From contig DATFWE010000042.1 in the NCBI GenBank assembly GCA_035259575.1, positions 4,882-68,881 on the forward strand: 64,000 bases of DNA. Direction: 5' to 3'. This stretch comes from Haliangiales bacterium (GTDB lineage Bacteria > Myxococcota_A > Polyangia > Haliangiales > SHYZ01). The position numbers and the translations under genes were made by a program. This document shows positions 9,033 through 25,983 of this stretch, one piece after another. The notes below the pieces were generated by a model. It did not search any database. It was not told the DNA's origin and saw nothing but the letters and a program-made list of their open reading frames with translations. Each line of letters opens with the position of its first letter. The stretch's first letter is position 1.

Positions 9033-9183
9033 GGGTCTCCTCGGTTTTTTCGTCGCGTAGGGGAAACAGGGACAGGCGATCGGCGTGCTCGTGGTCGCGC
9101 TGCTTCATGCTGAAGCCGAAAAGGAGGATCGAGCCGGCGACGAGCATCAGGCTCACGAACACCTGGAGGATCACGACCGCCAT
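9019..9183 (-). CDS. ccoS: cbb3 oxidase maturation protein CcoS/FixS (54 aa; not separately listed in the ORF track)
   Basis: MAVVILQVFVSLMLVAGSILLFGFSMKQRDHEHADRLSLFPLRDE; one TM helix, between ccoI and ccoN, overlapping both. Confidence 0.8.
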   Translation of the reverse strand: MAVVILQVFVSLMLVAGSILLFGFSMKQRDHEHADRLSLFPLRDEKTEETHGHR

Positions 9184-11492
9184 AGACGACTCCGCCGCGA
9201 CAGCGATGCAACCGTCGCGCCGATCACGGTGAGCGAGCTCGCGGGCATGAGCACGGCGCACAAAAGGGGCGACATCAGGCCGGCGTAGGCCAGCGCGACG
9301 GCACCCACGTTGTAGGTGACGGCGATGGCAAGATTGGTGCGCACCACGCGGGCGAGGCGGCGCGCCGCATCCAGCGCGAGCCGCACCGGGCGCAGGCCGG
9401 GCGACGTGAACCAGAAATCGGAGCGCGCGGGCATGAACGGCCGGTCGATGGCGGGCGTGCCCGAACAGGTCGCCTGGTCGGCGGCGAGGCTGTCGTTGAT
9501 GCCGTCGCCGATGAACAGGACGTCGCCGCGGTCGTTCGCGCGGAGCCACGCCGCCTTGGCCGACGGGGTCTGTCCGCCGAGCGCGCGCGCCGCCGGAATG
9601 CCCAGCGCCCGCGCCTGGTCGGCCACGCGCGCGGGCGAGTCGCCCGACAGGATCCACACCTCGTAGCGGCCGGCGGCGAGCCGCCGCGCCTCGTCGGCGG
9701 CGTCGGGGCGGAGCTCCTCCACGGTCTCGAGCGGGATGGGCGGCGCGCCGGCCGCGGAGAACCCGGCGGCGTCGAGCCGGTAGACGCGGCCGCCGCGAGT
9801 CAGCTCGACGCCGCGCCCGGGCTCCTCGACGACCACGAGGCCGTCGACGAAGCGGTGCGCCCCGGCGTCCTCGAGCGCGCGTCGCACCGCCGCGGCCCTG
9901 GGGTGGGAGCTACGCGCGGCGAGGTTGTAGAGCGCCTCGCGCGCGTCGCCGTCGAGGGCGGCGAGGGCCGTCGGGTCGGCGAGGCGCAGGGACCCCGTCG
10001 TGAGCGTGCCCGTCTTGTCGAACACCACCCGCCGCACCGCGGCGGCGCGGTCGAGGAACCCGCCGGCGCGCACGTACAGGCCGTGGCGGCGCAGCCCCGC
10101 CTGGGCGAGCTCGTAGGCGAGGGGCGTGGCGATCCCCAGCGCGCACGGGCAGGTGACGATGAGCACCGCGGCGGTGACCGCGAGCGCGCGGCCGGCGTCC
10201 CCGGTCGCGAACGCCCATCCGCCGAACGCCCCCGCGGCGAGCGCGAGCACCGCGATGACGTACCAGCGGGCGAGGCGGCGCCAGAACGCCGTCGCCCGCG
10301 GCAGCTCGGTCTCGCGCCGCGTCGACTTCTCGAGGAGGGGCAGGAGCGTGGACGCGGCGAACGGGCCGGCGGCGCGGGCGGCCGCCGCGTGCGCGGACGC
10401 GTTGAACGCGCCCGCCGGGATGGTGTCTCCGCGGGCGAACGCGCGCGGGGCGCTCTCTCCGGTGATCCAGTCGAGCGAGAACGTGGCGGCCTCGGCGTCG
10501 AGCGCGGCGTCGACGGGGCAGAGGTCGCCCGGCGCGAGGAGTAGGCGATCGCCCTCGCGGAGCTCGGCGCAGCGCACGATCGCCACGCGGTCGCGGTCCA
10601 CGCGGCGGACGAGGAGCTCATCCGCGCCGTCGGCGGCGAGGAGCTGGCGGCGGTTCTTCTCGAGGACGCGCTCCTGCAGGAACCGGCCGAGGAGCATGAG
10701 GGCGATGAAGACGGTGAGCGTGTCGAAGTAGGTGGCGTCGCCGCGATGGGCGACGAACGACAGCGTGGACGAAGCGAACGCGAGGAGGATCCCCAAGGCG
10801 ATGGGGAGGTCGAGGTGGAAGAGCCCGCGGCGCAGCGCCTCCCACGCCGAGCGGAAGAAGACCGGGCCGCCCACCAGCACGGCCGCGGCGGCGAGCGCGA
10901 AGTTGAGGTCCCGGAACATGCGGTAGATCGGCCCGGCGCGGAGCCCGGCGTAGGTCGCGATGCCGAAAATCATCGCGTTCATGGCCAGGGCGACGCACAC
11001 GCCCAGGCGCCAGAGGAGGTCGCGCGAGCCGGTCGGCGCGTCGGGCTTGCGCGCCGGGCCGAGGCGATAGCCGAACCGCTCGATGTCCGTCACCAGCTCG
11101 CCGAGGGGAAACTCCGGCGCGACGGTGAGCGACAGCGTGCCGAGCGCCGGGTTCACGACGATGTCGAGCGCCCCGCGGTCTCGCCGGCGCGCGAACATCT
11201 GCTCGATCAGCCACACGCACGCGGCGCAGCGGATGCCCTGGACGTCGAGGCTGAGGCGCTGGACCGGCCCGCCGGCGGCGAGGCGCTCCGCCGCGAGCGC
11301 CACCCACTTGTGGTCGGCCGGCGCCTCGGCGGCGGTCGCCGGCACGCCCACCGCGCCGCCGAGCTCGTAGTAGCGGTCGAGACCCTCGCTGCGGATGAGG
11401 TGGTACACCGTCTCGCACCCGCGGCAGCAGAAGGATCCGGCGCTGGGCGTGCCGCAGTGCAGGCAGGCGACCGCGCAGGACGACGAAATCAT
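9171..11492 (-). CDS. ccoI: P1B-type Cu-ATPase CcoI/FixI
   Basis: N-terminal CLHCG..FCCRGC, CAAC metal domain, CPC, DKTGTLT and GDGINDS. Start placed at ATG 11492, downstream of a sigma54-like element. Confidence 0.93.
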   Translation of the reverse strand: MISSSCAVACLHCGTPSAGSFCCRGCETVYHLIRSEGLDRYYELGGAVGVPATAAEAPADHKWVALAAERLAAGGPVQRLSLDVQGIRCAACVWLIEQMFARRRDRGALDIVVNPALGTLSLTVAPEFPLGELVTDIERFGYRLGPARKPDAPTGSRDLLWRLGVCVALAMNAMIFGIATYAGLRAGPIYRMFRDLNFALAAAAVLVGGPVFFRSAWEALRRGLFHLDLPIALGILLAFASSTLSFVAHRGDATYFDTLTVFIALMLLGRFLQERVLEKNRRQLLAADGADELLVRRVDRDRVAIVRCAELREGDRLLLAPGDLCPVDAALDAEAATFSLDWITGESAPRAFARGDTIPAGAFNASAHAAAARAAGPFAASTLLPLLEKSTRRETELPRATAFWRRLARWYVIAVLALAAGAFGGWAFATGDAGRALAVTAAVLIVTCPCALGIATPLAYELAQAGLRRHGLYVRAGGFLDRAAAVRRVVFDKTGTLTTGSLRLADPTALAALDGDAREALYNLAARSSHPRAAAVRRALEDAGAHRFVDGLVVVEEPGRGVELTRGGRVYRLDAAGFSAAGAPPIPLETVEELRPDAADEARRLAAGRYEVWILSGDSPARVADQARALGIPAARALGGQTPSAKAAWLRANDRGDVLFIGDGINDSLAADQATCSGTPAIDRPFMPARSDFWFTSPGLRPVRLALDAARRLARVVRTNLAIAVTYNVGAVALAYAGLMSPLLCAVLMPASSLTVIGATVASLSRRSRLWRS

Positions 11493-11505
11493 CACGCGGG
11501 CATCT

Positions 11506-11522
11506 AGCAAGGAGGGTGCCGA
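11506..11522 (-). promoter_or_regulatory. Putative sigma54 -24/-12 promoter of the cco operon
   Basis: Minus strand TCGGCACCCTCCTTGCT (GG-N10-GC, close to TGGCAC-N5-TTGC). Confidence 0.7.
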
Positions 11523-11550
11523 CCGCCGCGCGCCCGGACCGGGGACGCGG

Positions 11551-11565
11551 GCGCAGTTTCTGCGC
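11551..11565. promoter_or_regulatory. Palindromic activator-type site
   Basis: GCGCAG-TTT-CTGCGC; a half site (GGAAG-AAT-CTGCG) lies 31 bp downstream at 11583-11595. Confidence 0.6.
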
Positions 11566-11614
11566 CCCCATCCCCGAGCCGGGGAAGAATCTGCGCGCTT
11601 TCCGACGACCTTCC

Positions 11615-11630
11615 GAGCACGCGACTTGCA
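11615..11630 (+). promoter_or_regulatory. Putative sigma54 promoter (non-canonical AG at -24)
   Basis: GAGCACGCGACTTGCA; ATG 11644 lies 15 nt after the -12 C. Confidence 0.5.
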
Positions 11631-11643
11631 GTCTGATCACGTC

Positions 11644-12498
11644 ATGCACACCGTGTCCGAGCTCATGACGCCGAGCCCGATCGTCATCGACGTCCATCAA
11701 CCGTTGGCGGAGGCCTCCGAGCGGATGGAGCAGTTCAGGCTCCGGCATCTGCCGGTCATCGACGCTCGGGGCCGGCTCGTCGGGATCCTGTCCGAGCTCG
11801 ACCTCTATCGCTTCAAGGACAAGCGGCCTCGGGCCGACCTCGAAAACATGGCCGTCGGCGCGGCCATGGACCCGAATCCCTACACCGTGGCGCCGGACGC
11901 TCCCATCACCTCGGTCGCGCGCACCATGGCCGCCCAGCGCATCGGCGCTGCGGTCGTCATGAACGAAGGCCGCGTCGCCGGCGTGTTCACCACCGTCGAC
12001 GCGCTCCGCGGGCTCGCGGCGGCGGACGTGCTCTCCGAGGTCGGTGGCGCGCCGGTGTCGCCGACGGCCGCGCGCAAGGTCCTCTGCCCCATCGACTTCT
12101 CCCCCGGTTCGCGCGAGGCCGTGTGCCACGCGCTCGACCTCGCGCGCGGCTCCGGCGGCTCGGTCACCCTGTTTCACGCCTTCGACGTGCCGGCGGTGTC
12201 GTTCACCCCGGCGATGATCGAGCAGGCCGACGAGCAGGTGCTGGCGTCGCTTCACGAGTGGCGGCTCGACTTCCAGCGTCCCGGCGAGGCCGATATCGCC
12301 GTCGCCAAGGGCATCGGCCCGGCGTGGCGGGCGATCGTGGACTACGCGAAGGCCCACGACTACGACGTCATCGTGATGGGGACGCACGGACGCACCGGGC
12401 TCCCGCGCATGCTGGTGGGCTCGGTGGCGGAGAACGTGACGCGCCACGCGCCCTGCCCGGTGATGATCGTGCGGCGCCGCGAGAGCGATCGCCCATGA
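11644..12498 (+). CDS. CBS-domain pair fused to a universal stress protein domain
   Basis: VSELMTPSP..RLRHLPVID..LVGILS and IGAAVV..VAGVFTTVD (CBS); VLCPIDFS..IVMGTHGRTGLPRMLVGSVAENV.RHAPCPV (USP). Confidence 0.9.
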   Translation: MHTVSELMTPSPIVIDVHQPLAEASERMEQFRLRHLPVIDARGRLVGILSELDLYRFKDKRPRADLENMAVGAAMDPNPYTVAPDAPITSVARTMAAQRIGAAVVMNEGRVAGVFTTVDALRGLAAADVLSEVGGAPVSPTAARKVLCPIDFSPGSREAVCHALDLARGSGGSVTLFHAFDVPAVSFTPAMIEQADEQVLASLHEWRLDFQRPGEADIAVAKGIGPAWRAIVDYAKAHDYDVIVMGTHGRTGLPRMLVGSVAENVTRHAPCPVMIVRRRESDRP

Positions 12499-12517: not shown

Positions 12518-14179
12518 ATGCATGACCCGTCGTCTGAGACCTCCCGGCTCGACGAGCTGACCGCCGTCGTGGCAAGGCTCGAGGAGCGCGTCGCGAGGCT
12601 CGAACGCGCGCCTGCGGAGTCGAGCGCGCCGCGCCAAGCGCCGCGACCTGCGCCGCGTGCCGAGCCCATGCCGCGGCCACGCTGGCTCGATGCCGCGCTC
12701 CTCGGGCGGAGCTTCATCGTGCTGGGAATCGGTTACCTCCTCCGGGCGATCACCGATCTCCCCGTCGTGCCGGACGCCGTGGGCGCCGGCGTCGGCCTCG
12801 CCTTCGCGGCCGCGCTCCTCGTCCTCGCCGATCGCGCCGGCGCGCGCGGACGTCCTGCGAGCAGCGCCTGCCACGGCGCGACCGCGCTGATCGTCGCGTA
12901 CCCCCTGGTGGCCGAGCTGGTGGCGCGCTACGCGCTCATCGGTGCGGCCGGGAGCGCGGCGCTGGTCGTGGCCTTCAGCATCGCGACGATGGTCGTGGCG
13001 GCGCGCCGTCGGGTCGTCGCCCTGGCCTGGATCGTCACGCCTGCATCTCTGCTCGCGATCGTCGCCCTGGCCACGCAGACGGGTTTGACGGCACCCCACG
13101 CCGCCGCCGTCGTGGCGCTCACCGCGGCATCCGCTTGGCTGGCGCGCCGCCTCCGGCAACGCTTCCTCGTCTGGCCGGTCGCCATCGCCTCCGACCTCGT
13201 CGTCCTCCTGTTCGCGTCGCTGGTCGTGTGGGGGAGGAGCGCCGCCTCGCCGTGGGGCGCGGCCGCCATCGCCCTCCTCTTCTTCGGGCTCTGCGCCGGC
13301 GGCACGATGGCGCGGGCGGTGCGCGACGGCACCGCCACGACGCCATGGGAGAACCTCCAGGCGTCCGCCGCTTTTGTCGTGGGGCTGGTGCCGGCGGCGC
13401 GAATCTCCGCCCAGCTGGCCGGCGGCGCGTTCCTCGGCCTGGCGATGCTCGCCCTCGGCGTCGCCGGCGAGGTCCTCGCCCTGCGTGCGTTCTCGCCGCA
13501 GACCGCCGGACGTACGCTCGCCTTCTGGACGTCGCTCTGGCTGGCCGTGGTCGTGGTCTCGCTCGCCGTCGTCTTCCATGGGCCCGCGCTCGCGCTCGTC
13601 GAGCTCGCGCCGGCGGCGGCCATGCTGATCGTCGTGCGCCGGCGCGAGCACCCGGCGGGTGAGCTCCAGGCGCTCGCGACGATCGTCGTCGCCGCGGCCG
13701 TCTCCGGTGCGCTCGATGATGTCGCGCGCGCGCTGACCGCCCCGCCGCCCGACGTCGCCGCGCCCGGCCCGATCGGGCTCGCGGTCCTCATGGCTCTCGT
13801 CGTCGCCGTTGTCCGCGGCATCCGCGAGCCCCCGCGCGACGCGAGCCTTCCGCGTCGCGCCGCCAAGATGCTCGCGGTGCTGCTGGGCGCGCTCTCTGTC
13901 GCCGGACTCGCCGCCGGGCTCGCCGCCGCGATCCTCCACCCCTCGTTCGCGGCCATGGCGACGATCCGCACGGGCATCCTCTCGCTCTCCGCCGTTGCGC
14001 TCGCGCTCGTCCCGCGGCGGTCGTGCGCGGACCTCGTCTACCCCCTGCTGGCGCTCATCGCCATCAAGATCGGCGTCGAGGACCTGCGGCACGGCGTGGC
14101 GGCGACCCTGTTCGTCAGCCTCGGCCTCTTCGGGCTAACGCTGATCCTGGCGCCGCGCTTCCGCCAGGCCGGCACATGA
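12518..14179 (+). CDS. Polytopic membrane protein, DUF2339-like
   Basis: N-terminal coil RLEERVARLE, Pro-rich linker, then many TM helices. Confidence 0.55.
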   Translation: MHDPSSETSRLDELTAVVARLEERVARLERAPAESSAPRQAPRPAPRAEPMPRPRWLDAALLGRSFIVLGIGYLLRAITDLPVVPDAVGAGVGLAFAAALLVLADRAGARGRPASSACHGATALIVAYPLVAELVARYALIGAAGSAALVVAFSIATMVVAARRRVVALAWIVTPASLLAIVALATQTGLTAPHAAAVVALTAASAWLARRLRQRFLVWPVAIASDLVVLLFASLVVWGRSAASPWGAAAIALLFFGLCAGGTMARAVRDGTATTPWENLQASAAFVVGLVPAARISAQLAGGAFLGLAMLALGVAGEVLALRAFSPQTAGRTLAFWTSLWLAVVVVSLAVVFHGPALALVELAPAAAMLIVVRRREHPAGELQALATIVVAAAVSGALDDVARALTAPPPDVAAPGPIGLAVLMALVVAVVRGIREPPRDASLPRRAAKMLAVLLGALSVAGLAAGLAAAILHPSFAAMATIRTGILSLSAVALALVPRRSCADLVYPLLALIAIKIGVEDLRHGVAATLFVSLGLFGLTLILAPRFRQAGT

Positions 14180-14304: not shown

Positions 14305-14652
14305 ATGAAGCGGCTGAGCGCCATGTTCTTCCTCTCGATGTCTCTCCTCGGTCCCGCCATCGCCTCGGCGGACGACGCCGCGACGAATCGCGTGTTCCGC
14401 GCCAAGTGCGCGTCCTGCCACGGCGAGGACGGCAAGGGACACACCAAGGAAGGCGAGAAGATGAAGGTAGGCGACATGACGTCGGCCGCGTTCCAGAAGG
14501 AGCTCACCGACGAGAAGATCAAGCAGACGATCGAAAACGGCCTGTCCCGCGAGAAGAACGGCGTCAAGCAGGAGATGAAGCCGCTCAAGGACAAGCTCAC
14601 GCCCGAGCAGATCGACGCGCTGGTCAAATACGTCCGCGGGCTGGCCAAGTAG
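14305..14652 (+). CDS. Secreted mono-heme class I cytochrome c
   Basis: AGGAGG SD, signal peptide, CASCH and distal Met (QEMKP). Confidence 0.92.
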   Translation: MKRLSAMFFLSMSLLGPAIASADDAATNRVFRAKCASCHGEDGKGHTKEGEKMKVGDMTSAAFQKELTDEKIKQTIENGLSREKNGVKQEMKPLKDKLTPEQIDALVKYVRGLAK

Positions 14653-14665: not shown

Positions 14666-15124
14666 ATGAGCGATCACGCACCCGCGCCGGTGACGCGAAG
14701 GCGATTCCTCGACGCCCTTCTCGGCGCGGGGCTCGTCGGCTGGCTGGCCACGGTCCTTTACCCGGTGCTGCGTTATCTCAAGCCGCTCAGCTCGACCGGT
14801 CCGGGCGGACCGATCAAACTGTCGGCCGACGAGGCGACCAAGCTCGAGCGGGAACGCTACGTGATCGTGCGCGCCGGCACCAGCCGCGTCCTCGTCTTCG
14901 AAGATGCGGCTCAAGGCCTGCGCGCGCTGTCGGCGAAGTGCACCCACGAGGGGTGCACCGTGCAGTACGTCGCGGGCGAGTCGATCGTCCTGTGCGCGTG
15001 CCACAACGGCCGCTACGACCTCGACGGCCGCGTGCTCGCTGGGCCGCCGCCGCGCCCGCTCGCGCAGTACGAGGCGCAGCGCGACGCCGACGGCTCGATC
15101 CTCGTCAAGCTGGGGACGTCGTGA
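14666..15124 (+). CDS. Rieske 2Fe-2S subunit of a Rieske/cytochrome b complex
   Basis: Tat-like RRRFL plus TM helix; CTHEGC and CACHNG motifs. Confidence 0.93.
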   Translation: MSDHAPAPVTRRRFLDALLGAGLVGWLATVLYPVLRYLKPLSSTGPGGPIKLSADEATKLERERYVIVRAGTSRVLVFEDAAQGLRALSAKCTHEGCTVQYVAGESIVLCACHNGRYDLDGRVLAGPPPRPLAQYEAQRDADGSILVKLGTS

Positions 15125-18015
15125 GCGCACCGGAGCGCCGGCGCGGACGCCTCTTCCGCTGGCTGGACTCGCGCTACCAGCTCCAGCCCGTCGTGGACTT
15201 CCTCGAGCACAAGGAGGTGCCGGTCGGCGTCCACTCACTGATCTGGTACTACCTCGGCGGCACGACGCTGTTCTTCTTCGTCGTGCAGATCGCGTCGGGC
15301 GTGCTGCTCCTCATGTATTACCAGCCCGGCGAGGCCACGGCGTACGAGAGCATCCGCTACATCACCACGAAGGTGCCGTTCGGCTGGCTCATCCGCTCCG
15401 TCCACTGCTGGAGCGCGCACCTGATGATCGTCTCGCTGGTGGCGCACATGTTCTCGACGCTCATGCTCAAGGCCTACCGGCCGCCGCGCGAGCTGACCTG
15501 GGTCACCGGCTTTCTCCTGTTCGCCGTCGCGCTCGGCTTCGGCTTTTCCGGCTATCTCCTGCCGTGGAACGAGCTGTCGTTCTTCGCCACGTCGGTCGGC
15601 ACCGACTCGGTGAAGGAGATCCCGGTCATCGGCGACTGGTTGCTGCAGGTCCTGCGCGGGGGCACCGAGGTGAGCATCAACACGCTCTACCGCTTCTTCG
15701 GGCTGCACGTCGTCATCCTGCCGCTGGCGGCGTTCGCCATCATCGCCGTCCACCTCCTGTTCATCCAGCGCCAGGGCATGGCGCCGCCGGTCCATCCGCC
15801 GGCGACGCCGCGCGCGATGAAGTTCTTCCCCAACTTCGCGGTGCGCGATCTGCTGATCTGGCTCTTGTGCCTGGCGGCGCTGACCAGCCTCGCGGTGTTC
15901 CTGCCGTATGGCCCCGGCGTCCCCGGCGTGGAGTGGGAGCTCGGCAAGAAGGCCAACCCGCTCGCCCCGGCCTACCCGGGGATCAAGCCGGAGTGGTACT
16001 TCCTGTGGGTCTACCAGCTCCTCAAGGAGTTCCCGCCGCACCTGGTCGGCGGCCTGGAAGGCCCGCAGGCGGCGCTGCTGCTCGTCGGCGGGCTGCTCGT
16101 CGTGTGGGCGCTCATCCCGTGGCTCGACCGATCGGCGCGCCGCAACGAGCCCTCCCCGGCCTTCACCGACTTCGGCATGGCGGCGCTCCTGTTCATCGCG
16201 TTCCTGACGCTCAAGGCGTGGGACATCGGCGGGGGCGCAGGCAAGGTGCCGGACGCGCGGGCGGTCGCGTGGACGACGGCCTGGTACGCGCTCGGCGTGG
16301 CGCTCGTCTCGGTAGTCGTGCGCGCGGTCGTGTACCGGCATCGCTGGTTCCTGTTCACCGGGGCGTTCGCCGTCCACGTGGTGCTGCACGGTCTCGTCGG
16401 CCTGCCCTACCTCCTCGCCGGCGCCATCGGCATCGGCGTGCTCCTGGCGGCGCTGGGCGGCCTCAAGCTGCGCGGTCGCGGCGCCGTCGCGCTGCTCGTG
16501 GTCCTCGGCGCCGTCTCGGCGGCGCGCGCCGACGAGCCGCTGCCGCCTGCGCTGCAGAAGATGTTCGACGCCCGCCGGCCCGACGGCGCGCCCGTCATCC
16601 CGCCGGCGCAGCGAGAGTACTTCGCCAAGCTTCCCGATCGCGTGCGCGCCCTCGTCGCCGAAGCGGCCGACGCGACCATCCTCGGCTCGGCCGAGCACGC
16701 CCGCCGTCTGTTCGCGCTGAACCTTCCGCCGACGGCCTTCGAGCTCCTCATCAAGGACAACTGCATCGTCTGCCACACCGATCCAGGCAACGTCGAGGCG
16801 CGCACGCTCTTCTCCGCCGACCCCAAGGCCGACAAGTCGTCGCCGCGCCTCAACCTCAAGGAGTTCGCCAGCGACGTGCACTTCCGCCGCGGCGTGTCCT
16901 GCTCCGGCTGCCACGGCGGCTCGCCCACCGACCTCAACATGACCGACGCCATCGCCGAGCGGTGGCCGAGCGAGGAGGACCGCGCGAAGTCGCACGCCTG
17001 GATCCCGGCGTTCTGCGCGCGCTGCCACAGCGACGCCGCCTACATGCGCTCCTTCAACCAAGCCTTGCCCACCGACCAGCTCGCCAAGTACAAGACCAGC
17101 CGACACGGCCAGCGGCTCCTGGTCGAGGGCGACGACAAGGCGGCCCAGTGCGCGAGCTGCCACGGCGGGCACGGGATCCGCAGCGCGAAGAGCCCCAAGT
17201 CGATGGTCCACCCGCAGCGCGTTCCCGAGACGTGCGGCGCGTGCCACGCCGACGCCCGGTACATGGCCGGCGAGAAGACCGACCGCGGCGAGCCCCTGCC
17301 GACCAATCAGCTCGAACAGTACAGGAAGAGCGCGCACGGCAAGGCCCTCCTCGAGAAGGGCGATCTCGGCGCGCCGGCGTGCAACTCCTGCCACGGCAAT
17401 CACGCCGCGCAGCCGCCCGCCGTCGCCTCCGTGTCGGAAGTCTGCCGCGTTTGCCACGTCACGAACGGCCGGCTGTTCGACGGCTCGAAGCACAAGATCG
17501 CATTCGAGAAGCACGGCTGGCCGGAATGCGCCCAGTGTCATGGCAAGCACGACATCGCCAAGGCGAACGACGAGCTTCTCGCCGACGGGGCCGAGCGGCT
17601 GTGCCACGCTTGCCACGCCAAGGACGCGCCGGACAACAAGGAATGCGACGCCACGGCGAGCCATTTCCACGCGACCCTCGGCGAGCTGGCCGGGTCGATG
17701 ACGGCGTACACCGTCGAGGGCGAGGAGCTGGCGAAGAAGGGCCTCGACGTCGAGCCGCTCACGAACGTGCTCGGCGAGCTCGAGGAGTCGCTCGTCAAGG
17801 CGCGCGAAGGCATCCACAGCTTCGACAAGGACACGTTCGATCGCCTGGCGGATCCGGCGCGCGCGGCCGCGAAAAAGAGCCAGGAGCTCATCGACGCCTC
17901 GCGGAAGGAGTACCGCTTCCGGCAGGGCGGGCTCCTGGCGGCGATCGGTGCGATGTCGCTGCTCGCGCTCGGGATCTACCTCACGCTGCGGCGGATCGAG
18001 TCGCGGAAGCCCTGA
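15121..18015 (+). CDS. Cytochrome b (b6 + subunit IV-like) fused to a C-terminal 9-heme cytochrome c domain
   Basis: GTGA overlap with the Rieske gene; RSVHCWSAH, RPPRELTW, SGYLLPWN, FFGLHV, AVHL and KPEWYFL, then 9 CxxCH and a C-terminal TM helix. Confidence 0.9.
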   Translation: MSAPERRRGRLFRWLDSRYQLQPVVDFLEHKEVPVGVHSLIWYYLGGTTLFFFVVQIASGVLLLMYYQPGEATAYESIRYITTKVPFGWLIRSVHCWSAHLMIVSLVAHMFSTLMLKAYRPPRELTWVTGFLLFAVALGFGFSGYLLPWNELSFFATSVGTDSVKEIPVIGDWLLQVLRGGTEVSINTLYRFFGLHVVILPLAAFAIIAVHLLFIQRQGMAPPVHPPATPRAMKFFPNFAVRDLLIWLLCLAALTSLAVFLPYGPGVPGVEWELGKKANPLAPAYPGIKPEWYFLWVYQLLKEFPPHLVGGLEGPQAALLLVGGLLVVWALIPWLDRSARRNEPSPAFTDFGMAALLFIAFLTLKAWDIGGGAGKVPDARAVAWTTAWYALGVALVSVVVRAVVYRHRWFLFTGAFAVHVVLHGLVGLPYLLAGAIGIGVLLAALGGLKLRGRGAVALLVVLGAVSAARADEPLPPALQKMFDARRPDGAPVIPPAQREYFAKLPDRVRALVAEAADATILGSAEHARRLFALNLPPTAFELLIKDNCIVCHTDPGNVEARTLFSADPKADKSSPRLNLKEFASDVHFRRGVSCSGCHGGSPTDLNMTDAIAERWPSEEDRAKSHAWIPAFCARCHSDAAYMRSFNQALPTDQLAKYKTSRHGQRLLVEGDDKAAQCASCHGGHGIRSAKSPKSMVHPQRVPETCGACHADARYMAGEKTDRGEPLPTNQLEQYRKSAHGKALLEKGDLGAPACNSCHGNHAAQPPAVASVSEVCRVCHVTNGRLFDGSKHKIAFEKHGWPECAQCHGKHDIAKANDELLADGAERLCHACHAKDAPDNKECDATASHFHATLGELAGSMTAYTVEGEELAKKGLDVEPLTNVLGELEESLVKAREGIHSFDKDTFDRLADPARAAAKKSQELIDASRKEYRFRQGGLLAAIGAMSLLALGIYLTLRRIESRKP

Positions 18016-18034
18016 CGCGGGCGCGCCGGCGACA

Positions 18035-19172: not shown

Positions 19173-22100
19173 TTACCTGTGCACCTCGGCGATGGCCGCC
19201 AGGCGGCCGGGGCCGTGGCAGAGCAGACACTGCTCCTTCGTGGCGCCCGGGGCGAGCACGACGCTGCGCGGCGCGTAGAAGTAGCCGCCCATCGCCTGCA
19301 TGTGGTCGATCGCCACGGGCGTGTCGTGGCACGCGGAGCAGGCCGCGACAATCGGCGACTTCACGAGCGTCGTGGGATCGGCCTCGCACGGCGCCGAGGT
19401 GGAGCACGTCTTGGCGGCCACACCGGTGCACGGAGCAGCGCTGGTGCACGTGCACGGAGCGGCCGCGGTGCAGTTGGTGCCGCCCTGCTTGCCCGAGGTG
19501 ACCCCGGTCACCGTGCACGGGTTGGCAAGGCTGCACGTGCACGGCGTCGCCGGCGTGCAGCTCTGGGTCCCCTGCGTGCCCGTTCGCCCGTCGGGAAGCG
19601 TCGTCGTGAGGTTGGTCGTGGCGAACCCGAGCCCGTAGTCGGTGAAGCCGTCCGCGATGACGTACGGCGAGATGGTGAACCAGCTCGCCGGATTCGTCGT
19701 CGCGTTGTTGTTGTATCGCCCCTTCGCGACTGTGCTCGGCAGCATGCTGGGCAGCGCGGCCATGCTCGTGGCGGAGCTGAAGTCGTAGTCGCCCGCGACG
19801 TGGCACGCCGTGCAGTTGTTGAGCGGCCCGGGGAACTCCACGTGGGAGAAGTTCTCGGTCGCCGACTCCGCGTGCCACGTGAACGCCACGGTGCGCTTGC
19901 GCGCGCCGTGGATCGCGTGGATGAAGTCCTTGGCGTTCCCGCCCCAGCCGCTGGTCGACTGGTTGGGGTTGTGACAGAACGAGCAGGTCGGCCCGTTGTT
20001 GCGCTGCCCGGCGTGGAACGTCGGCGCGGCGCCGAGCGTGACGTGACACTTGAGGCAATTTGCGTTGTCGATGATGACGTGGCGAGCCGTGTATCCCGTC
20101 GCCACCTTGTAGACGTCGGGCGCGGGGACGATCAGGCCGCCTTGCTTCTTGACGGTGTCGTACGGGAACGCGGGGAGATCGATCTCGGTCAGCGGGAACG
20201 CCGACACCAGGTTGTAGGTGTAGCCCACGCCGCCGGTGAGCTGCGCGGCGTTGTTCGGGATCACGACGTTGGGGAGGACGATGGTATAGAAGCCGGACGC
20301 GTCGGGTCCCGTCAGCGTGCCGGCGCCCGTTCCCGTCGCGGTGCCGTTCCAGATGTTCTTGATGTAGCCGCTGGCGGTCGCGTTGTAGTCCGCCGGTGCC
20401 GCGATGCCGTCCTGCGGCACGCTGAACGCGAAGTAGACGCTCGGCGAGCCGACGAAGCCGTCCATGAGCTCGGTGGCGCCGCCGCCGAACGTGGGGAAAG
20501 CGACGTTGCTGCCGTTCTTGAGCAGCTTGAACTTGATCGACGGGCGCTTGACCCCGCCGGCATCGGCGACGGCGTCGACGCTGCTGACGGCGTACGTGAT
20601 GACCGCCGCGCCTTCGGGGACCGCCCCCGCGGCCGCCAGGAATCCCGCGTTCGTGTTGGCGTTCGTGCCGCCATTCAAGATGTTGTTCGGGTCCGGGGGA
20701 GCGATCGGCACGTGGTATCTGCCGATGAGCGCCGGCGTGTGGCACGTGGCGCAGGCGCCGTCGGCGACTGCGCCGCCGGTGTGCTTGCACGGCACGTTCA
20801 AGCCCGTGCCGTCGACCGCGGGCGGATGGACGCACGTCGCGGCGGACGAGGCCGCGGCGAAGTCGACCTGGTCGTGGCACGACGTGCACGCGGCGAGGGT
20901 CGGACGACCCTTCGCCTGCGCGCCTTGCGCCGCGCCGTCGTGGCAGGCGCCGCAGTTGCGGATGTCCTGCGGATAGGTCGCAGCGACGCCGTGGAACACG
21001 TTCTGCGGCTGGAGCGACTCGCCGTTGTGGATGCGGTGCACGAACACCATGGCCTGCGCCGCGGGGTTCGAGACCCGGGCCGGGTTGTGGCACACGACGC
21101 AGTACCGCGCGTCGATGCGGCCGCTGTTGTGGAAGCTGCTCGAGGTCAAGCCCTCGGCGCTGAAGCCGCGGTGGCAGTTGTTGCAGCCCGCGGTCGACGC
21201 GATCTCCCGGTTGAGCGGCGTCCCGGTGGGGTTGTTCGGGATGTAATTGAAATACGTGTTCACCGCGTCGAAGCCCGCCGGGTCGAGCGTGTTGTCGAGG
21301 TTGGTCTGGCGGGAGGCCTCGATCCACACGACGTGCGTGTTCCCCAGCTTGCTCGCGTCGTACGCGACCGCCGTGAAGACGACGCCGTTCGGGGCGCCGG
21401 ACGTGTCGGTCTGCTGCACGTCGGCCGTGGGGAACGTGTAGGTGTACTCGCCGGACAAGGGAACGTCCTCGACGAGCAGTCCGACCGCGGGCGTCCTCGT
21501 CGTCGCGGTGGTCGTGGCGCTGGGGTTGTAGGCGGTCGGCTGGAACCTGGTCTGCGCCGACGCCGAGCTCGCCTGCGTGAGCACGGTGTTCGGCAGGACG
21601 TTCCCGTCGGGGTCCTTGGTGAGGTACGACAGCGAGAACCGCATCGCGATCGGCGTGTTCAGCGTGTAGATCCCGTTCTTGTCCACGGGGAAACCGCGCG
21701 AGTCCTTCATCGAGAACCGGACGGAGATTGCGCCGGACGCGTCGTCGCTGACGCCCTTGATGGCGATCGCCAGCCCGGTGCTCGTGGCCGAAGGGCCCGG
21801 GGTGCCGCCGCATACATACGTCGTCTGCGCGGGGTTCACCTCCGAGGGATCGAGGAGGCCGTTGCCGTTGGCATCGACGCCCATCTCGATCTTGACGCCG
21901 CCGGACGGGCAGTTCGGCCCGGGCGGCTCGGGGCTGGTTTTCACGAGCGTCGGCCGGCCGCTCGAGCCGTTGCAGATGTACGTCGTCTCCGACGCGTTGA
22001 CCTCGCCCGGATCGAGGACGCCGTTCATGTTCGCGTCCACGCCGGTCTCGAGCCTGGTGCCGCCGTTGGCGCAGTGCGCCCCCGGGGGCTCGGGCGTGGT

Positions 22101-22205
22101 CGCGACGAGCGCCGTGCCGCCGGTGTCGCCCGTGCAGCCGGCGAACAAGACCGCCGCGACCGCGCCGGCGAGCCGGATTCGTCCGATTCTGCTTGCGTTG
22201 TGCAT
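19173..22205 (-). CDS. OmcA/MtrC-family decaheme cytochrome lipoprotein with N-terminal tandem repeats
   Basis: GGAGG SD before ATG 22205; lipobox LFAGC; 10 CxxCH in a 5+5 arrangement separated by a beta-rich domain; FVHRIH and FIHAIH distal-His motifs. Confidence 0.88.
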   Translation of the reverse strand: MHNASRIGRIRLAGAVAAVLFAGCTGDTGGTALVATTPEPPGAHCANGGTRLETGVDANMNGVLDPGEVNASETTYICNGSSGRPTLVKTSPEPPGPNCPSGGVKIEMGVDANGNGLLDPSEVNPAQTTYVCGGTPGPSATSTGLAIAIKGVSDDASGAISVRFSMKDSRGFPVDKNGIYTLNTPIAMRFSLSYLTKDPDGNVLPNTVLTQASSASAQTRFQPTAYNPSATTTATTRTPAVGLLVEDVPLSGEYTYTFPTADVQQTDTSGAPNGVVFTAVAYDASKLGNTHVVWIEASRQTNLDNTLDPAGFDAVNTYFNYIPNNPTGTPLNREIASTAGCNNCHRGFSAEGLTSSSFHNSGRIDARYCVVCHNPARVSNPAAQAMVFVHRIHNGESLQPQNVFHGVAATYPQDIRNCGACHDGAAQGAQAKGRPTLAACTSCHDQVDFAAASSAATCVHPPAVDGTGLNVPCKHTGGAVADGACATCHTPALIGRYHVPIAPPDPNNILNGGTNANTNAGFLAAAGAVPEGAAVITYAVSSVDAVADAGGVKRPSIKFKLLKNGSNVAFPTFGGGATELMDGFVGSPSVYFAFSVPQDGIAAPADYNATASGYIKNIWNGTATGTGAGTLTGPDASGFYTIVLPNVVIPNNAAQLTGGVGYTYNLVSAFPLTEIDLPAFPYDTVKKQGGLIVPAPDVYKVATGYTARHVIIDNANCLKCHVTLGAAPTFHAGQRNNGPTCSFCHNPNQSTSGWGGNAKDFIHAIHGARKRTVAFTWHAESATENFSHVEFPGPLNNCTACHVAGDYDFSSATSMAALPSMLPSTVAKGRYNNNATTNPASWFTISPYVIADGFTDYGLGFATTNLTTTLPDGRTGTQGTQSCTPATPCTCSLANPCTVTGVTSGKQGGTNCTAAAPCTCTSAAPCTGVAAKTCSTSAPCEADPTTLVKSPIVAACSACHDTPVAIDHMQAMGGYFYAPRSVVLAPGATKEQCLLCHGPGRLAAIAEVHR

Positions 22206-22242
22206 CACGTCCTCCATCAAGCCGTTCGTACCGACCCGGCCG

Positions 22243-23322
22243 TCAGAAATGACAGGTCGTGCACATCCCGTTGCTGCGGATCTCCGAGTGGTCGTGGTGC
22301 GAAAGCCACGACGCGGGATGTGGGTTGCCGCCGATCCCGCCGACGCGGTGGCAGCTCACGCAGTTGGATCGCGGGCCCTGGTCGTGGCACGACGCGCAGC
22401 TCGCGATGTCGCGCCGCGCCGCCTCGCCATGGAAATCCCCCGATCCCGGGATGGTCCACCCGAGCGGATGCGGATCACGCGGATTTTGCGCGGTCGGCGT
22501 CAAATTCTGGGCCTGATGACAGCTCGTGCAGAAATCGTTCCCATGGCACTTGCGGCAGGAGGCCTCGTTGCCGGCGGCCTCGATCGAGTGCCGTCCGAGG
22601 AAGTCATTGCGGTGGATGAAGGACGCGTCGACCGACTCGGGGAACTTGACCTCGACCCGGGTCGCCACGGTCCGGGCGTGGCAGTCCGCGCAGTACGTCT
22701 GGTCGTGGCACTGCGCGCAGTTCCCGGCGGAGCTGCGCGCGTCGGCGCCGTGGCGCGCGATGTAATTGCCCTGGTGCGAGAAATCGGACAGGGGCTTGAG
22801 CGCGATGCGGTTCAGCGTCGGATGGCACCCCGTGCACTGGGTCTGCGCGTACTCCTGCGCGTGCTCGTGGCAGCCCAGGCAGTCGCTCATCTTGGGCACG
22901 GTGTCCACCGCTGCGAACGGCTCCGGGAGCCGCTGGTGACAAGTCGAGCAGTCCTCCTTGACGCGCTCGATGTGCTTCTGGTGGCTCATCTTCACCAGGC
23001 CCTCGGCGAGCGTGCGCTTCGCGGCGTGCTGGACGTCCGTGTGGCAGAAGCTGCAGTTGTTCTTTTCCTTCTGCTCCTTGTGGCACTGGAGGCACGTGTC
23101 TTCCGGGGGCAGCGCCTCGGGCGCGGTGCCGAGCGCGGTCTCGTCGAACACGCCCTCGTGGCAGGCGATGCACTTGACGTCGTTCTTGGCGTGGATCTCG
23201 TGCGGAGCGCGGATCCGATCGCTGGGCGGGTCGGCCGGCGTCGTCCGCGGCGACGCGGGCCAGCACGAGACGAGGGCGCCGCCGGCGGCGGCGAGCGCGA
23301 CGAGGGCAAGCGCCTTCCTCAC
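22243..23322 (-). CDS. 13-heme cytochrome c3-like lipoprotein
   Basis: GTG 23322 overlaps the upstream stop; lipobox LVSC; 13 CxxCH with PHEIH and SHQKH c3-type distal His pairs. Confidence 0.9.
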   Translation of the reverse strand: MRKALALVALAAAGGALVSCWPASPRTTPADPPSDRIRAPHEIHAKNDVKCIACHEGVFDETALGTAPEALPPEDTCLQCHKEQKEKNNCSFCHTDVQHAAKRTLAEGLVKMSHQKHIERVKEDCSTCHQRLPEPFAAVDTVPKMSDCLGCHEHAQEYAQTQCTGCHPTLNRIALKPLSDFSHQGNYIARHGADARSSAGNCAQCHDQTYCADCHARTVATRVEVKFPESVDASFIHRNDFLGRHSIEAAGNEASCRKCHGNDFCTSCHQAQNLTPTAQNPRDPHPLGWTIPGSGDFHGEAARRDIASCASCHDQGPRSNCVSCHRVGGIGGNPHPASWLSHHDHSEIRSNGMCTTCHF

Positions 23323-24584
23323 GGCGTCACCTTCTTCGCGCGGTAGTCGAAGTTGTAGACCAGCTTCGCCATCGCCTCGGTGCGCCACTCGAGCAGCGGC
23401 GTCCGCCCGGTCAAGCCGCTCACGAGGCCCCTCCACCCGGGCGCGAAGTCCCAGCCGACCGTCGCGGCGAACGTCAGCGACAGGTTCTCGCCGTTGATCC
23501 GCGGGTCGAGCCACACCGCGTCGCAATCGAGGGTCGCCGTGACGTCGCGGCCGAACCGGTGCAACCCGTAGATGCGGCCCTGGACGTAGCGGCTGGCCGG
23601 CAGCGCGAGGACGCGCCCCTGGACGCCGATCTGAGTCATGTCCGCCCCGTCGACGGCGAGCGATGCGCGCAGCCCGGCGCGCCCGCCGGTGCCGGAGTCG
23701 TCGTGGAGCACGAAGCCGTCCCCCCACAGGCGAAGGCGCGCCCACGGCCGGAAGTACACCGTCGCCCCGCCCTCCTCGCGCGCCTCCTCGGCGAACACGG
23801 AGAAGATCGACGCCCGCGATACGAACAGATCCGGCGCGGTGCGCGCCGCCTCGGCCGTGACCTCGAGGTTGCGCAGCGGCTGCCACAGCGCGCGCAGCGA
23901 CGCCTCGCTGATCCTCTGCTCGAGGATGCTGAACGCCGCGAGCGCGGTCAACGTGACCTCTTCCGTCACGACCGCGCGCGCGTCGACGCCGGCCTCCTGG
24001 CGATCGACCAAGCCGTCGTCGAGGATGTCCACGAACGAGAGGCCGCCCTCGAAGATCGGCGACGGCCGCCACGACAGGCGCCCGCCGATCACGCCCTGAC
24101 CGTGGGCGTAGCCGAAACGCGGCGGCACGGGAACGCCGCCGTAGATCTGGACACGGATGCCCGCGGGGGCGAGCGCGACGACGTCGGCACCGTCGAGCTG
24201 AAGGTTGCGCGCGACGCCCGAGGCGACGAGCTGGCGCCCGAGACGCACGCCCAGGTGACGATCGAACAGCTTGCCCTCGATGAACGCGACGTCGACGTCG
24301 CCGGTGACGTTGCGGTCGTCCAACGTGGTGCCGCCGGCGACCATGCCCCACCCGGACACGACGATGCGCGTCCCGTGGACTCCCGGGATGTCGACGTCGC
24401 GCGCCGAGAGCCAGATTTCCTCGTACGCGGGTACGACCGTGTGCACCGTGCCGTCGCGTGGGTCCTGGCGCCCGGCGAGGAGCGTCAGAGCGGTCGCGTC
24501 GACGGTCTGCCCGTGCACGAGCACCGGCAGGCCCACGCCGACGGCCGCCACGATCGCGCTAGTTCTGAACGTCGACCATTCCAT
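23319..24584 (-). CDS. Putative outer-membrane beta-barrel (porin of a porin-cytochrome conduit)
   Basis: Signal peptide, no hemes, many alternating amphipathic strands (GVDARAVV, LEVTAEAAR, LTFAATVGWDF, AMAKLVYNF); coupled between two multiheme genes. Confidence 0.68.
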   Translation of the reverse strand: MEWSTFRTSAIVAAVGVGLPVLVHGQTVDATALTLLAGRQDPRDGTVHTVVPAYEEIWLSARDVDIPGVHGTRIVVSGWGMVAGGTTLDDRNVTGDVDVAFIEGKLFDRHLGVRLGRQLVASGVARNLQLDGADVVALAPAGIRVQIYGGVPVPPRFGYAHGQGVIGGRLSWRPSPIFEGGLSFVDILDDGLVDRQEAGVDARAVVTEEVTLTALAAFSILEQRISEASLRALWQPLRNLEVTAEAARTAPDLFVSRASIFSVFAEEAREEGGATVYFRPWARLRLWGDGFVLHDDSGTGGRAGLRASLAVDGADMTQIGVQGRVLALPASRYVQGRIYGLHRFGRDVTATLDCDAVWLDPRINGENLSLTFAATVGWDFAPGWRGLVSGLTGRTPLLEWRTEAMAKLVYNFDYRAKKVTP

Positions 24585-25980
24585 TGATGTGGGCTCCGCC
24601 AACCTTGATGGCGCCGCCGGGCAAGACCGTCCCGGAGTGACACTGCACACAGTCCGACAGCTTCAGGCTCGGGTCATGGGCGTCCGTCGGCGGTGGGATG
24701 CCGTGGCACGAGCCGCAGGCGATCGTGCCCACCCCGCCGCCCCACACCGGCCGCACCGCCCCGTGGCACCATACGTTGTTGCAGGTCTGCGCCTGCGCAT
24801 CCCACGCCGGCTGGGTTTTGCCGCCGCCCGTGGCGCGCACGCCGGTCATGGCGACGGTCGCCTCCTGCGTGAGGTGCCCGGGCGCATCGACGCTCGCGGG
24901 GACCGTGTGGCAGTCGCCGCACGCCACGGGCGCGGACAAAAGGTGCAGCGCGTCCGTGTGCGCGAGGTGGCTGCCCGTCGCGGGCGGCTGGCCGTGACAG
25001 CTCGTGCACACATCGGCGCCGACGCCGAAGTCGATGCTGCCGTTGACGTGCTTGCTCGCGTCGCGGACGTGGCGCTCGGCGTCGACGACCGCCGAATGGC
25101 AATCGACGCAGCGACCGCCGGTGTTGTGATGGCCGCTCGGCGGCAGCCCGTGGCACGTGCCGCACGCCGCCTGGTCGGGGCCGCCGGTCCACTTCGGCGC
25201 GGTCCGCGTCGCCGCCGCGTCCGTGAACGCGCCCCCGTGACAGTAGACGCCCGAACAGGTCCGGGCGGGCTGATCGTAGGTCGGCGTCGCCGACATCGCG
25301 AATGCCAGGGCGCCGAAGTGTATCGTCGCCGGTCCGGTGTGGAGGTGGCCGGCCTCGGTCACGACCGCCGGCTTCAGGTGGCACGCGGTGCAGTCGAGCG
25401 CCGCGCCGATGCCTCCCGAGACGTGGGCCAGGTGCGACCCGGTGGATGGCGGCTGCCCGTGACAGCCCGTGCACGATGTCAGCCCGCCGGAGTGGCAGGT
25501 CGCGCACCCGACGCCCGAGGTGCCGCCGGCGAAGTCGCTGCCGTGGCATTTCGCGCACAGGGTGAGGTCCCAGTTGAACACCTGGCCGACGACCGTGCCG
25601 TGGAACGTCGGATCGCTCGGATTCATCAGGCCCGGGCCATGGACGGGCGACGTCTCGTAGCCCAGGTCATCGTCGACGACCCAGGTCCGCAGCAGCGCGA
25701 ACGTGGTCGCGAACGGCGCGTGCGTCGCGTCGCTCCCGATGGCGATGAGGACGGACGTCGCGTCGCCGGCGCGGGCGCGCGCGATGACCTGAAAATAGTC
25801 GTCCGTCCGGAAGCCGGCCGCCGGCTCGCTCCCGGTGTGGCAGGAGCCGCACTTGTCGGCGAGCGCGGGCGCGACGTCCTTCTTCCACGTCAATCCCTGT
25901 CGCCGCACACCCGGCTCGAGGGTTTGCGGCGTGGCGCAACCCACGGCGAGGCCGACGGCCATGGCGGCGACTGCGCGCAT
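24559..25980 (-). CDS. 13-heme CxxxxCH/CxxCH-domain cytochrome lipoprotein
   Basis: Lipobox LAVGC; 11 CxxCH plus CSGVYCH and CNNVWCH; two internally repeated modules. Confidence 0.9.
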   Translation of the reverse strand: MRAVAAMAVGLAVGCATPQTLEPGVRRQGLTWKKDVAPALADKCGSCHTGSEPAAGFRTDDYFQVIARARAGDATSVLIAIGSDATHAPFATTFALLRTWVVDDDLGYETSPVHGPGLMNPSDPTFHGTVVGQVFNWDLTLCAKCHGSDFAGGTSGVGCATCHSGGLTSCTGCHGQPPSTGSHLAHVSGGIGAALDCTACHLKPAVVTEAGHLHTGPATIHFGALAFAMSATPTYDQPARTCSGVYCHGGAFTDAAATRTAPKWTGGPDQAACGTCHGLPPSGHHNTGGRCVDCHSAVVDAERHVRDASKHVNGSIDFGVGADVCTSCHGQPPATGSHLAHTDALHLLSAPVACGDCHTVPASVDAPGHLTQEATVAMTGVRATGGGKTQPAWDAQAQTCNNVWCHGAVRPVWGGGVGTIACGSCHGIPPPTDAHDPSLKLSDCVQCHSGTVLPGGAIKVGGAHINGMVDVQN

Positions 25981-25983
25981 GGC

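Follow-up and report, generated by a model that had tools for sequence, protein, structure and literature searches.

A Rieske gene followed by a 964-codon cytochrome frame

The window analysed here is a 64,000-nucleotide stretch of a Haliangiales genome (contig DATFWE010000042.1; G+C ~72%), and the gene of interest is an open reading frame (ORF) at positions 15121-18015 on the forward strand, next to a Rieske iron-sulfur gene (Table 1). It is open over 964 codons as a single continuous frame, in which cytochrome b6 and subunit IV form one chain and a nine-heme (nonaheme) c-type cytochrome follows. The start codon is GTG and overlaps the stop codon of the Rieske gene as GTGA. The G+C content at third codon positions (GC3) is 0.86-1.00 over the entire gene. 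In Pfam, the 964-residue protein matches Cytochrome_B at residues 34-219 (E 8e-50) and Cytochrom_B_C at 278-365, and c7, c3 and paired-CXXCH models cover residues 581 to ~713. The top NCBIfam models for the N-terminus are cytochrome b6 and then ExtP, a Geobacter-type b cytochrome (203 bits versus a cut-off of 290), both below their cut-offs. Paired-CXXCH and DmsE-type NCBIfam models match at 753-836, and the c-type half is otherwise without a model in that database. Exactly nine CxxCH motifs are present, at residues 548, 594, 632, 677, 705, 754, 775, 803 and 828. An earlier sequence-only reading of this DNA had described a single ORF with cytochrome b and its PEWY motif, extra transmembrane helices, nine CxxCH motifs, a helical region and a C-terminal anchor, and this description is borne out by Pfam, motif analysis, hydropathy and an AlphaFold model.

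Table 1. Coordinates of the genes at the locus and of the parts of the fused gene (window positions; a slash marks the predicted cleavage site)
Feature	Position	Strand	Remarks
cbb3 oxidase genes	6003-9032	opposite to fused gene	
ccoP	6003-6569	opposite to fused gene	
CcoI-like P-type ATPase	9171-11510	opposite to fused gene	
CBS-Usp protein	11395-12498	co-directional with fused gene	upstream of fused gene
Polytopic membrane protein	12518-14179	+	553 aa; 125 nt upstream of cytochrome c gene
Monoheme class-I cytochrome c	14305-14652	+	115 aa; signal peptide, one CxxCH; Pfam Cytochrom_C / Cytochrome_CBB3 E 5e-12
Rieske [2Fe-2S] subunit	14666-15124	+	152 aa; TRRRFL twin-arginine motif, one N-terminal transmembrane helix
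Cytochrome b6-like four-helix part	15121-15789	+	residues 1-223, helices A-D; YYLGG at nt 15247-15261
Subunit-IV-like part	15823-16218	+	residues 235-366, helices E-G; PEWY at nt 15988-15999
Three extra transmembrane helices	16255-16467	+	residues 379-404, 411-426, 430-449; pLDDT ~85-96
Internal signal-peptide-like segment	16468-16530	+	residues 450-470: LRGRG, AVALLVVLGAV, SAARA/DE
N-terminal helical extension of mature nonaheme protein	16531-16755	+	residues 471-545; long form only
Nine-heme core	16756-17628	+	residues 546-836
Helical stalk	17638-17919	+	helices 840-872, 878-900, start of 903-961; invariant H899
C-terminal transmembrane anchor and short basic tail	17920-18012	+	hydrophobic 937-957; R934 invariant
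Porin-cytochrome operon	19173-27196	opposite to fused gene	downstream, converging on fused gene

The cofactor sites of the N-terminal part are strongly conserved. The b hemes have two histidine pairs as ligands, spaced by 13 residues in H95/H109 and by 14, as in b6, in H196/H211. Both pairs are invariant in 67 fused relatives, the set to which conservation refers below unless another is named, and so is every residue of the PEWY motif (P290-E291-W292-Y293). The heme-ci cysteine site reads W42-Y43-Y44-L45-G46-G47, where W42, Y43, G46 and G47 are invariant and the consensus has tyrosine in place of cysteine. Heme ci is probably absent from the fused cytochrome b, as the sequence-only reading had already suspected from the window protein itself. 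A sequence search of the PDB with the cytochrome b part gives cytochrome b6 as the top match (E 4e-54). In Foldseek comparisons of the first 420-470 residues, TM-scores normalised to the target are 0.64-0.73 for bc1 cytochrome b and 0.83 for Synechocystis b6.

The AlphaFold model of the full protein was built on the 67 relatives and has a mean predicted local distance difference test score (pLDDT) of 76; helices were located in it and also by hydropathy. Helices A-D span residues 37-66, 88-116, 123-143 and 186-219, and helices E-G span 235-260, 314-330 and 346-366. After helix G come three further helices (Table 1) and then a short one at 455-469. The extra transmembrane helices of the sequence-only reading are therefore present, and can now be divided into three family-specific helices (379-449) and a retained signal-peptide-like helix (455-469). 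The three extra helices are a trait of the long-form cytochrome b of this clade, found in relatives with separate genes too. At the C-terminus lie three long helices (840-872, 878-900, 903-961), the last of which ends in a hydrophobic anchor at 937-957. The heme domain is predicted to be periplasmic because the N-terminus is inside and eleven helices precede the domain; attachment of c-type heme requires that compartment.

The Rieske protein matches Pfam Rieske (E 2e-12) and the NCBIfam b6f iron-sulfur subunit (E 5e-20, below cut-off), and its two boxes are CTHEGC and CACHNGRY. Its gene is found directly upstream of cytochrome b in 78 of 80 related loci (described below), and across 83 loci the boxes follow the pattern CTHEGC...CACHNG[KR][FY]. 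In bc1 and b6f complexes the serine and the tyrosine of box II raise the potential of the cluster, their mutation costing ~130 and ~65 mV, respectively (PMC12954380). The serine position is always Gly or Ala in the 83 loci (Gly in the window), and the tyrosine is mostly Phe, with Tyr retained in the window. This loss of the potential-raising serine, together with the scarcity of the tyrosine, points to a low-potential cluster of the menaquinol-oxidising kind.

Two neighbouring genes in one frame

Relatives of the gene were collected by scanning contigs of one genome per species, and 378 stretches encode them; the nine-heme anchored protein, a putative substitute of cytochrome c1 or f, is thus encoded in hundreds of species. 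Counts for flanking genes refer to the best 80 of the 378. All of these 80 come from metagenome-assembled genomes, of Myxococcota, Acidobacteriota (Thermoanaerobaculia), Verrucomicrobiota, Krumholzibacteriota, Binatia and others, and the carriers belong to abundant, mostly uncultured phyla of soil and sediment. Loci were classed by whether the cytochrome b part and the nonaheme part stand in one reading frame: 35 of 82 loci are fused and 47 are split. In split loci the cytochrome b gene stops after helix 10 with a short basic tail, and the nonaheme gene, which usually overlaps it in another frame, has a C-terminal anchor and a signal peptide of its own, for example MIPLIAFALLAAAAP/DES. In the window the tail, stop and start are missing, and helix 10 leads through LKLRGRG into AVALLVVLGAVSAARA/DEPLPP. 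In alignments, the internal segment at residues 450-470 corresponds to the signal peptide at the N-terminus of nonaheme proteins that have a gene of their own. Judged by this correspondence, the ORF is a fusion of two neighbouring genes and not the three-part fusion that the sequence-only reading had seen in it.

Fused proteins of this kind are common. Full-length examples form more than 100 clusters at 90% identity, mostly from Acidobacteriota, and their database names are only 'cytochrome b6' or 'cytochrome b N-terminal domain-containing protein'. The possibility, raised in the sequence-only reading, that the architecture is a well-annotated family is thus right as to its being widespread and wrong as to its being characterised.

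To place the window among these proteins, a maximum-likelihood tree of the cytochrome b part was built with 84 rows and the source genome's own paralogues as outgroup. The window falls inside a 50-row clade (support 100/99) of which 46 rows are split. Its sister is a split Binatia locus (95/89), and it is the only fused row of its 25-row clade. Fusion is estimated to have arisen at least three to four times, in acidobacterial clades, in the L048/P0003-P0006 lineage and in the lineage of the window. Junction sequences differ among the fused lineages, and all of them keep the layout of a signal peptide, with a basic start, then a hydrophobic stretch and finally an AxA site.

The isolated position of the window in its clade would also be expected if the fusion were an assembly artefact or a recent inactivating lesion in an organism that truly has two genes, as its nearest relatives in the tree do. 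In split relatives the stop and start codons overlap or abut, and a small indel could merge the two frames. In addition, no ortholog turned up among 40 relatives at family, order or class level, whose only matches were to paralogous cytochromes b (36-39% identity); same-family and same-order genomes thus lack the gene. Confirmation of the fusion comes from a search with the nonaheme half, which returned an 88%-identical fragment (P0271) whose ENA contig (L095) is an independent assembly from another sample. Positions 1-2529 of that contig align with window positions 15497-18016 at 89.8% nucleotide identity. Across the junction it is open for ~170 codons in one frame, reading ...LVTALGGKRLLRGAAVLLVVACAVHEARADEPVPP..., and it differs from the window there by an in-frame indel of 3 nt. 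The same copy shows at least four frame changes in 2.5 kb, away from the junction, which are probably indel errors of long-read sequencing. Compared with its split sister, the window lacks ~14 codons at the junction (tail, stop and start), which a one-base slip of the assembly does not explain. GC3 stays at 0.94-0.96 across the domain junction, and other lineages have become fixed for a fusion of this kind. Taken together, these observations make an artefact or lesion highly improbable, and a hidden sequencing error, which the sequence-only reading had named as a danger, can be set aside as unlikely. The fusion in the window is real, and by its position in the tree it is lineage-specific and independently derived. 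It adds one more such fusion and is not a new kind of machine.

What was the signal peptide of the nonaheme protein persists in the fused chain as helix 11, with a positive n-region, a hydrophobic h-region and an AxA site. At the predicted cleavage site, 56 of the 67 relatives have Ala at position -3; at position -1, 60 have Ala and six have Ser or Gly. Positions -4 to -6 hold Pro or Gly, and the n-region holds Arg. In the model, pLDDT drops below 50 exactly at residues 464-471. Helix 11 would carry the heme domain across the membrane, and signal peptidase would then cut after A-R-A (residue 470), which would yield two mature subunits in a 1:1 ratio, as in FbcH of Bradyrhizobium. That lineages with independent fusions have kept a signal-peptidase site suggests continued cutting of the precursor. 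On balance we expect that the window's protein is processed into an 11-helix cytochrome b and a mature nonaheme subunit, although the conserved AxA site is compatible with cleavage and no proof of it; the precursor could also stay whole as a 12-helix, 11-heme protein. Repeated, independent fusion through a retained signal peptide would offer a clean natural example of two genes becoming one gene that still makes two proteins.

A short form of the gene trio also exists, for example at L099 6861-9602. Here cytochrome b stops after helix G (~340-380 aa) and the nonaheme partner is without the N-terminal extension of ~100 residues. As the extra cytochrome b helices and the nonaheme extension occur together, mutual contact between these two parts of the long form is suggested.

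The nonaheme subunit and its electron partners

The nonaheme half (residues 471-964) was compared by HMMER with 1.84 billion representative proteins (50%-identity clusters). There are 389 matches at E <= 1e-30 and 1405 at E <= 1e-10, most of them stand-alone proteins. Those of one class, 500-530 aa long, match the query over its full length. A second, larger class of ~410-450 aa is without the first ~100 residues, its matches beginning at query position ~109. In their source databases these relatives are called 'cytochrome c3 family protein', 'predicted CXXCH cytochrome' or 'hypothetical'. No curated family covers the subunit, and a literature search in open papers found no description of it beyond general remarks on multiheme partners. 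The interest of the locus lies mainly in this uncharacterised family and in the predicted polyprotein processing, the fusion itself being real and coherent and not unique.

In 63 aligned nonaheme relatives all nine CxxCH motifs are invariant. Invariant candidates for distal ligands in the same set are, in domain numbering, H117, H192, H214, H269, H291, H321, H340 and H429, and M172 and M245; eight histidines and two methionines beyond the CxxCH motifs are enough for nine six-coordinate hemes. An internal repeat can be read from the sequence, in which hemes 3-4 resemble hemes 5-6 (CxxCH-xDAxYM...LPT[DN]QL..Y..S.HG..LL..GD...A..C.SCHG.H). The domain is modelled with a pLDDT of 91 and a predicted template modelling score (pTM) of 0.80, and the helices of its N-terminal extension (domain positions 6-13, 25-33, 36-47, 54-62 and 67-75) exceed pLDDT 90. 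Searching PDB sequences with the domain returned no meaningful match, the top heme protein being 4qo5 at E 0.09. Foldseek comparison of the model with the PDB gave no match below E 0.6; TM-scores to NrfA/TvNiR were ~0.2, and the other hits were helical proteins aligned on the stalk. A lone cysteine, Cys842 (nt 17644-17646), follows heme 9 where the stalk helix begins and is without a partner cysteine outside the CxxCH motifs. All 63 nonaheme relatives have it, as do at least 90% of the fused ones, and it could be an axial heme ligand (His/Cys) or a redox-active thiol.

We infer that the nonaheme half is the c-type subunit of the complex, standing in for cytochrome c1 or f. This is argued from the absence of c1 in the genome, the invariant hemes and ligands, the C-terminal transmembrane helix, whose topology matches the anchors of cytochrome c1 and cytochrome f, and the constant link to cytochrome b, which the nonaheme protein always adjoins or is fused to in the related loci. 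The sequence-only reading had noted that no cytochrome c1 gene is present, and a wider search agrees: PF02167 has no match in the window or in the 92%-complete genome, and was detected in a Caulobacter control genome.

Further redox genes surround the fused gene (Table 1). A gap of 13 nt separates the Rieske gene from the preceding monoheme cytochrome c gene, whose product is a candidate soluble acceptor of the complex; homologues occur in the flanks of 22 of the 80 related loci. The polytopic protein encoded before it matches no Pfam family even at E <= 1. Weak homologues of it (28-53% identity) flank 17 of the 80 loci, on either side of the module, and it is a candidate accessory or assembly factor of the complex. 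Among the cbb3 genes, a 770-aa ORF on the minus strand (6720-9032) joins CcoN (Pfam COX1, residues 11-441) to CcoO (FixO, 538-750), another fusion of respiratory subunits in this genome. The downstream porin-cytochrome operon encodes an MtrC/OmcA-type decaheme lipoprotein, c7-like multiheme cytochromes, a NapC/NirT quinol dehydrogenase and a 443-aa protein without a Pfam match. A scan of 11.2-19.3 kb for sigma-70 promoters and terminators gave nothing usable.

In the 6.8 Mb of the source genome, only 14 ORFs have four or more CxxCH motifs, a density of 2.1 per Mb, and four of these ORFs lie between ~14650 and 25980 of the window. The organism is thus not cytochrome-rich in general, and its multiheme genes are concentrated at this cluster. 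Around 81 related loci there are 66 additional multiheme ORFs per Mb, an enrichment of ~30-fold, with at least one such ORF in 43 loci. Several near-complete genomes of the same class carry the trio; next to it, one has a 13-heme cytochrome and another an ORF with 33 CxxCH motifs. The 33-motif ORF (L101 8635-10821, plus strand, 728 aa, relative G310) directly follows the nonaheme gene. In one acidobacterial locus the neighbour is a tetraheme/iron-sulfur/NrfD module.

The genome also holds three other cytochrome b modules, of which at least two adjoin heme-copper oxidase genes. Two of the three are b-c fusions (G000:C158:2698-4937 and G000:C208:5501-7814, loci L096 and L098), each with its own Rieske gene. 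They comprise a 740-aa frame with two CxxCH motifs after cytochrome b and a 562-aa frame with a single CxxCH beside heme-copper oxidase genes.

Among the quinol oxidases that conserve energy in respiration and photosynthesis, Rieske/cytochrome b complexes hold the main place, and their c-type subunit sets the destination of the electrons. The fused gene probably encodes two subunits of such a quinol oxidase (complex III/b6f superfamily), made as one precursor and equipped with a nine-heme arm that would feed periplasmic cytochromes. The hallmarks of the superfamily are found here, namely two bis-His b hemes, PEWY and a cognate Rieske gene, and quinol:cytochrome c oxidoreductase activity with a Q-cycle is predicted. 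In the proposed mechanism, the N-terminal half would act as a ten-helix cytochrome b with two b hemes, a PEWY quinol-oxidation (Qo) site and no heme ci, and the C-terminal half as a periplasmic nine-heme cytochrome held by its C-terminal helix in place of c1 or f. Quinol, probably menaquinol, would be oxidised at the Qo site. One electron would pass through the low-potential Rieske cluster into the nine-heme chain and the other to the b hemes, in the fashion of a Q-cycle. From the heme chain, electrons could reach the small cytochrome c of the operon and then the neighbouring cbb3 oxidase, and also the periplasmic multiheme cytochromes of the adjacent porin-cytochrome operon. These partners are deduced from the cytochrome c gene in the operon, the cbb3 genes and MtrC-type operon nearby, and the enrichment of multiheme genes at related loci; the direction of flow is likewise a prediction.

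Several points weigh against this proposal. The nonaheme family is known from sequences and predicted models alone. Bis-His multiheme chains usually have low potentials, and a Q-cycle needs an acceptor chain above the potential of the quinol. The porin-cytochrome operon has its own NapC/NirT quinol dehydrogenase and so has no need of the complex; moreover, it is encoded on the other strand, and only ~7-9 of the 80 relatives have homologues of its genes nearby. The downstream genes of the closest relative, L095 (cation ATPase fragments and ActD), differ from those of the window, so that even a relative this close does not share the link to the porin-cytochrome operon. Given the absence of the gene from same-family and same-order genomes, its local context may be recent and accidental.

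If the porin-cytochrome operon, on the other strand and with a dehydrogenase of its own, is unrelated, the complex might be an ordinary complex III for micro-oxic respiration only, in which the nonaheme subunit replaces c1 and passes electrons through the monoheme cytochrome c to cbb3. The cytochrome c gene just upstream of the Rieske gene, its homologues at 22 of the 80 loci, and the fused ccoNO, ccoP and CcoI-type ATPase genes 3-9 kb upstream are all in line with such a role. Nine hemes, by contrast, far exceed what a one-step relay needs, and a cbb3 homologue was found at none of the 80 related loci. Other multiheme ORFs are enriched ~30-fold at related loci, the 13-heme and 33-motif ORFs beside the trio being examples. 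Besides, the genome already has its three other cytochrome b modules, at least two of them beside heme-copper oxidase genes. We therefore consider a purely micro-oxic complex III unlikely.

The complex could also run in reverse, with electrons from extracellular Fe(II) or another donor entering at outer-membrane cytochromes, crossing the nine-heme chain and being driven uphill into the quinone pool; in a variant, they would be split between an oxidase and the quinone pool, as proposed for the bc1 complexes of iron oxidisers. The cbb3 oxidase and small cytochrome c adjoining the operon would fit this, as would the Zixibacteria PetAB complex clustered with Mtr genes, which has been read as a sign of iron oxidation (PMC3903129). 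That interpretation was favoured by Castelle et al. because surface cytochromes of the MtrC/OmcA type were absent (PMC3903129), whereas a surface decaheme of this type is encoded near the fused gene. Furthermore, the Rieske cluster is predicted to be low-potential, which suits menaquinol oxidation, and no context of autotrophy or of a Cyc2-type oxidase was seen near the gene. Both the uphill and the split version thus appear very unlikely.

Returning to the proposed menaquinol-oxidising complex, a more specific function can be suggested, tentatively and with considerable doubt: a proton-motive Q-cycle exit from the menaquinol pool, dedicated to periplasmic or extracellular multiheme acceptors whose potential is high enough, namely Mn(IV), chelated Fe(III), humics, or O2 reached through cytochrome c. 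The complex would then work beside the non-conserving NapC/NirT dehydrogenase of the neighbouring operon, and acceptor potential would decide whether soil Myxococcota, Acidobacteriota and Verrucomicrobiota use the energy-conserving or the non-conserving route. This would parallel the ImcH/CbcL/CbcBA switch of Geobacter with different machinery, and the fused precursor, cut at its retained signal peptide, would guarantee 1:1 assembly. If the complex does link a Q-cycle to multiheme conduits, the energy yield estimated for metal and humic respiration in soils would change.

Comparison with known Rieske/cytochrome b systems

The sequence-only reading mentioned that Rieske/b complexes with multiheme cytochromes are known in some anaerobes, and they are indeed documented in anammox bacteria (PMC12954380) and noted in Geobacter (PMC2825233, PMC13591261) and Zixibacteria (PMC3903129). 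With the classical bc1 and b6f complexes, the predicted complex shares a Rieske protein with a twin-arginine (Tat) signal, a four-histidine cytochrome b with the b6-type 13/14 spacing, PEWY, and a c-type subunit with one C-terminal anchor helix. It differs in having b6 and subunit IV in one chain, Tyr44 at the position of the heme-ci cysteine, three extra helices, a nonaheme cytochrome instead of c1 or f, and a Rieske protein without the potential-raising serine. Assignment to b6f proper is rejected, since b6 and subunit IV are not separate and the CxGG cysteine for heme ci is missing, even though the 14-residue spacing of the helix-D histidines does fit. Assignment to bc1 proper is rejected in the absence of cytochrome c1 (PF02167).

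Kuenenia, an anammox bacterium, has the complexes Kustd1480-1485 and Kuste4569-4574, as well as Kuste3096-3097, in which cytochrome b is fused to a diheme c (PMC12954380). Common to these and the window's protein are a b6-like cytochrome b with a membrane-anchored multiheme c subunit (hexa- or octaheme in the anammox complexes) in place of f, and, in one of the anammox complexes, a fusion of b and c. Features of the anammox complexes that are absent here are separate b6 and subunit IV, an NAD(P) oxidoreductase subunit, a modelled heme cN, and a serine-bearing Rieske cluster above +300 mV (PMC12954380). An anammox-type complex is rejected because the upstream genes do not include an NAD(P) oxidoreductase, tyrosine occupies the place of the heme-cN cysteine, and the Rieske serine position is Gly.

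In Geobacter, which respires metals, the Cbc6 cluster (GSU2930-2937) combines Rieske and cytochrome b proteins with 2-, 10-, 12- and 5-heme cytochromes, and its role is not known (PMC2825233, PMC13591261). It resembles the locus described here in placing a Rieske/cytochrome b core amid multiheme cytochromes, and ExtP is the second-best model for the N-terminus. The c-type partners of Cbc6 are different, its b cytochrome has four helices, and there is no fusion. A nine-heme b-c fusion is also known in CbcL, which is reportedly built on a b domain of the HydC/FdnI type. Membership in the CbcL type is rejected, as only Pfam models of the Cytochrome_B type match the N-terminus.

The Mtr-PetAB cluster of Zixibacteria RBG-1 contains MtrAB and no surface cytochrome of the MtrC type, and was read as pointing to iron oxidation (Castelle et al. 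2013, PMC3903129). Both there and here a Rieske/cytochrome b complex lies beside an outer-membrane porin-cytochrome conduit and several multiheme cytochromes. The window differs in having an MtrC-type gene and in encoding the two modules on different strands.

As to gene organisation, a precedent is FbcH. Its cleavage into the mature subunits was reportedly demonstrated in 1991 work in PNAS. FbcH of Bradyrhizobium japonicum, a cytochrome b-c1 precursor, is the subject of a 1989 paper (Cell 57:683), as cited in PMC6256036. The window shows the FbcH-type layout of a single ORF with cytochrome b, an internal signal peptide with an AxA site and an anchored c-type cytochrome; in both cases one gene encodes cytochrome b and then the c-type subunit, joined by an internal signal-peptide-like segment with a signal-peptidase motif. 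The differences are that the c part carries nine hemes here versus one in c1, that processing here is predicted, and that fusion in this family arose several times independently.

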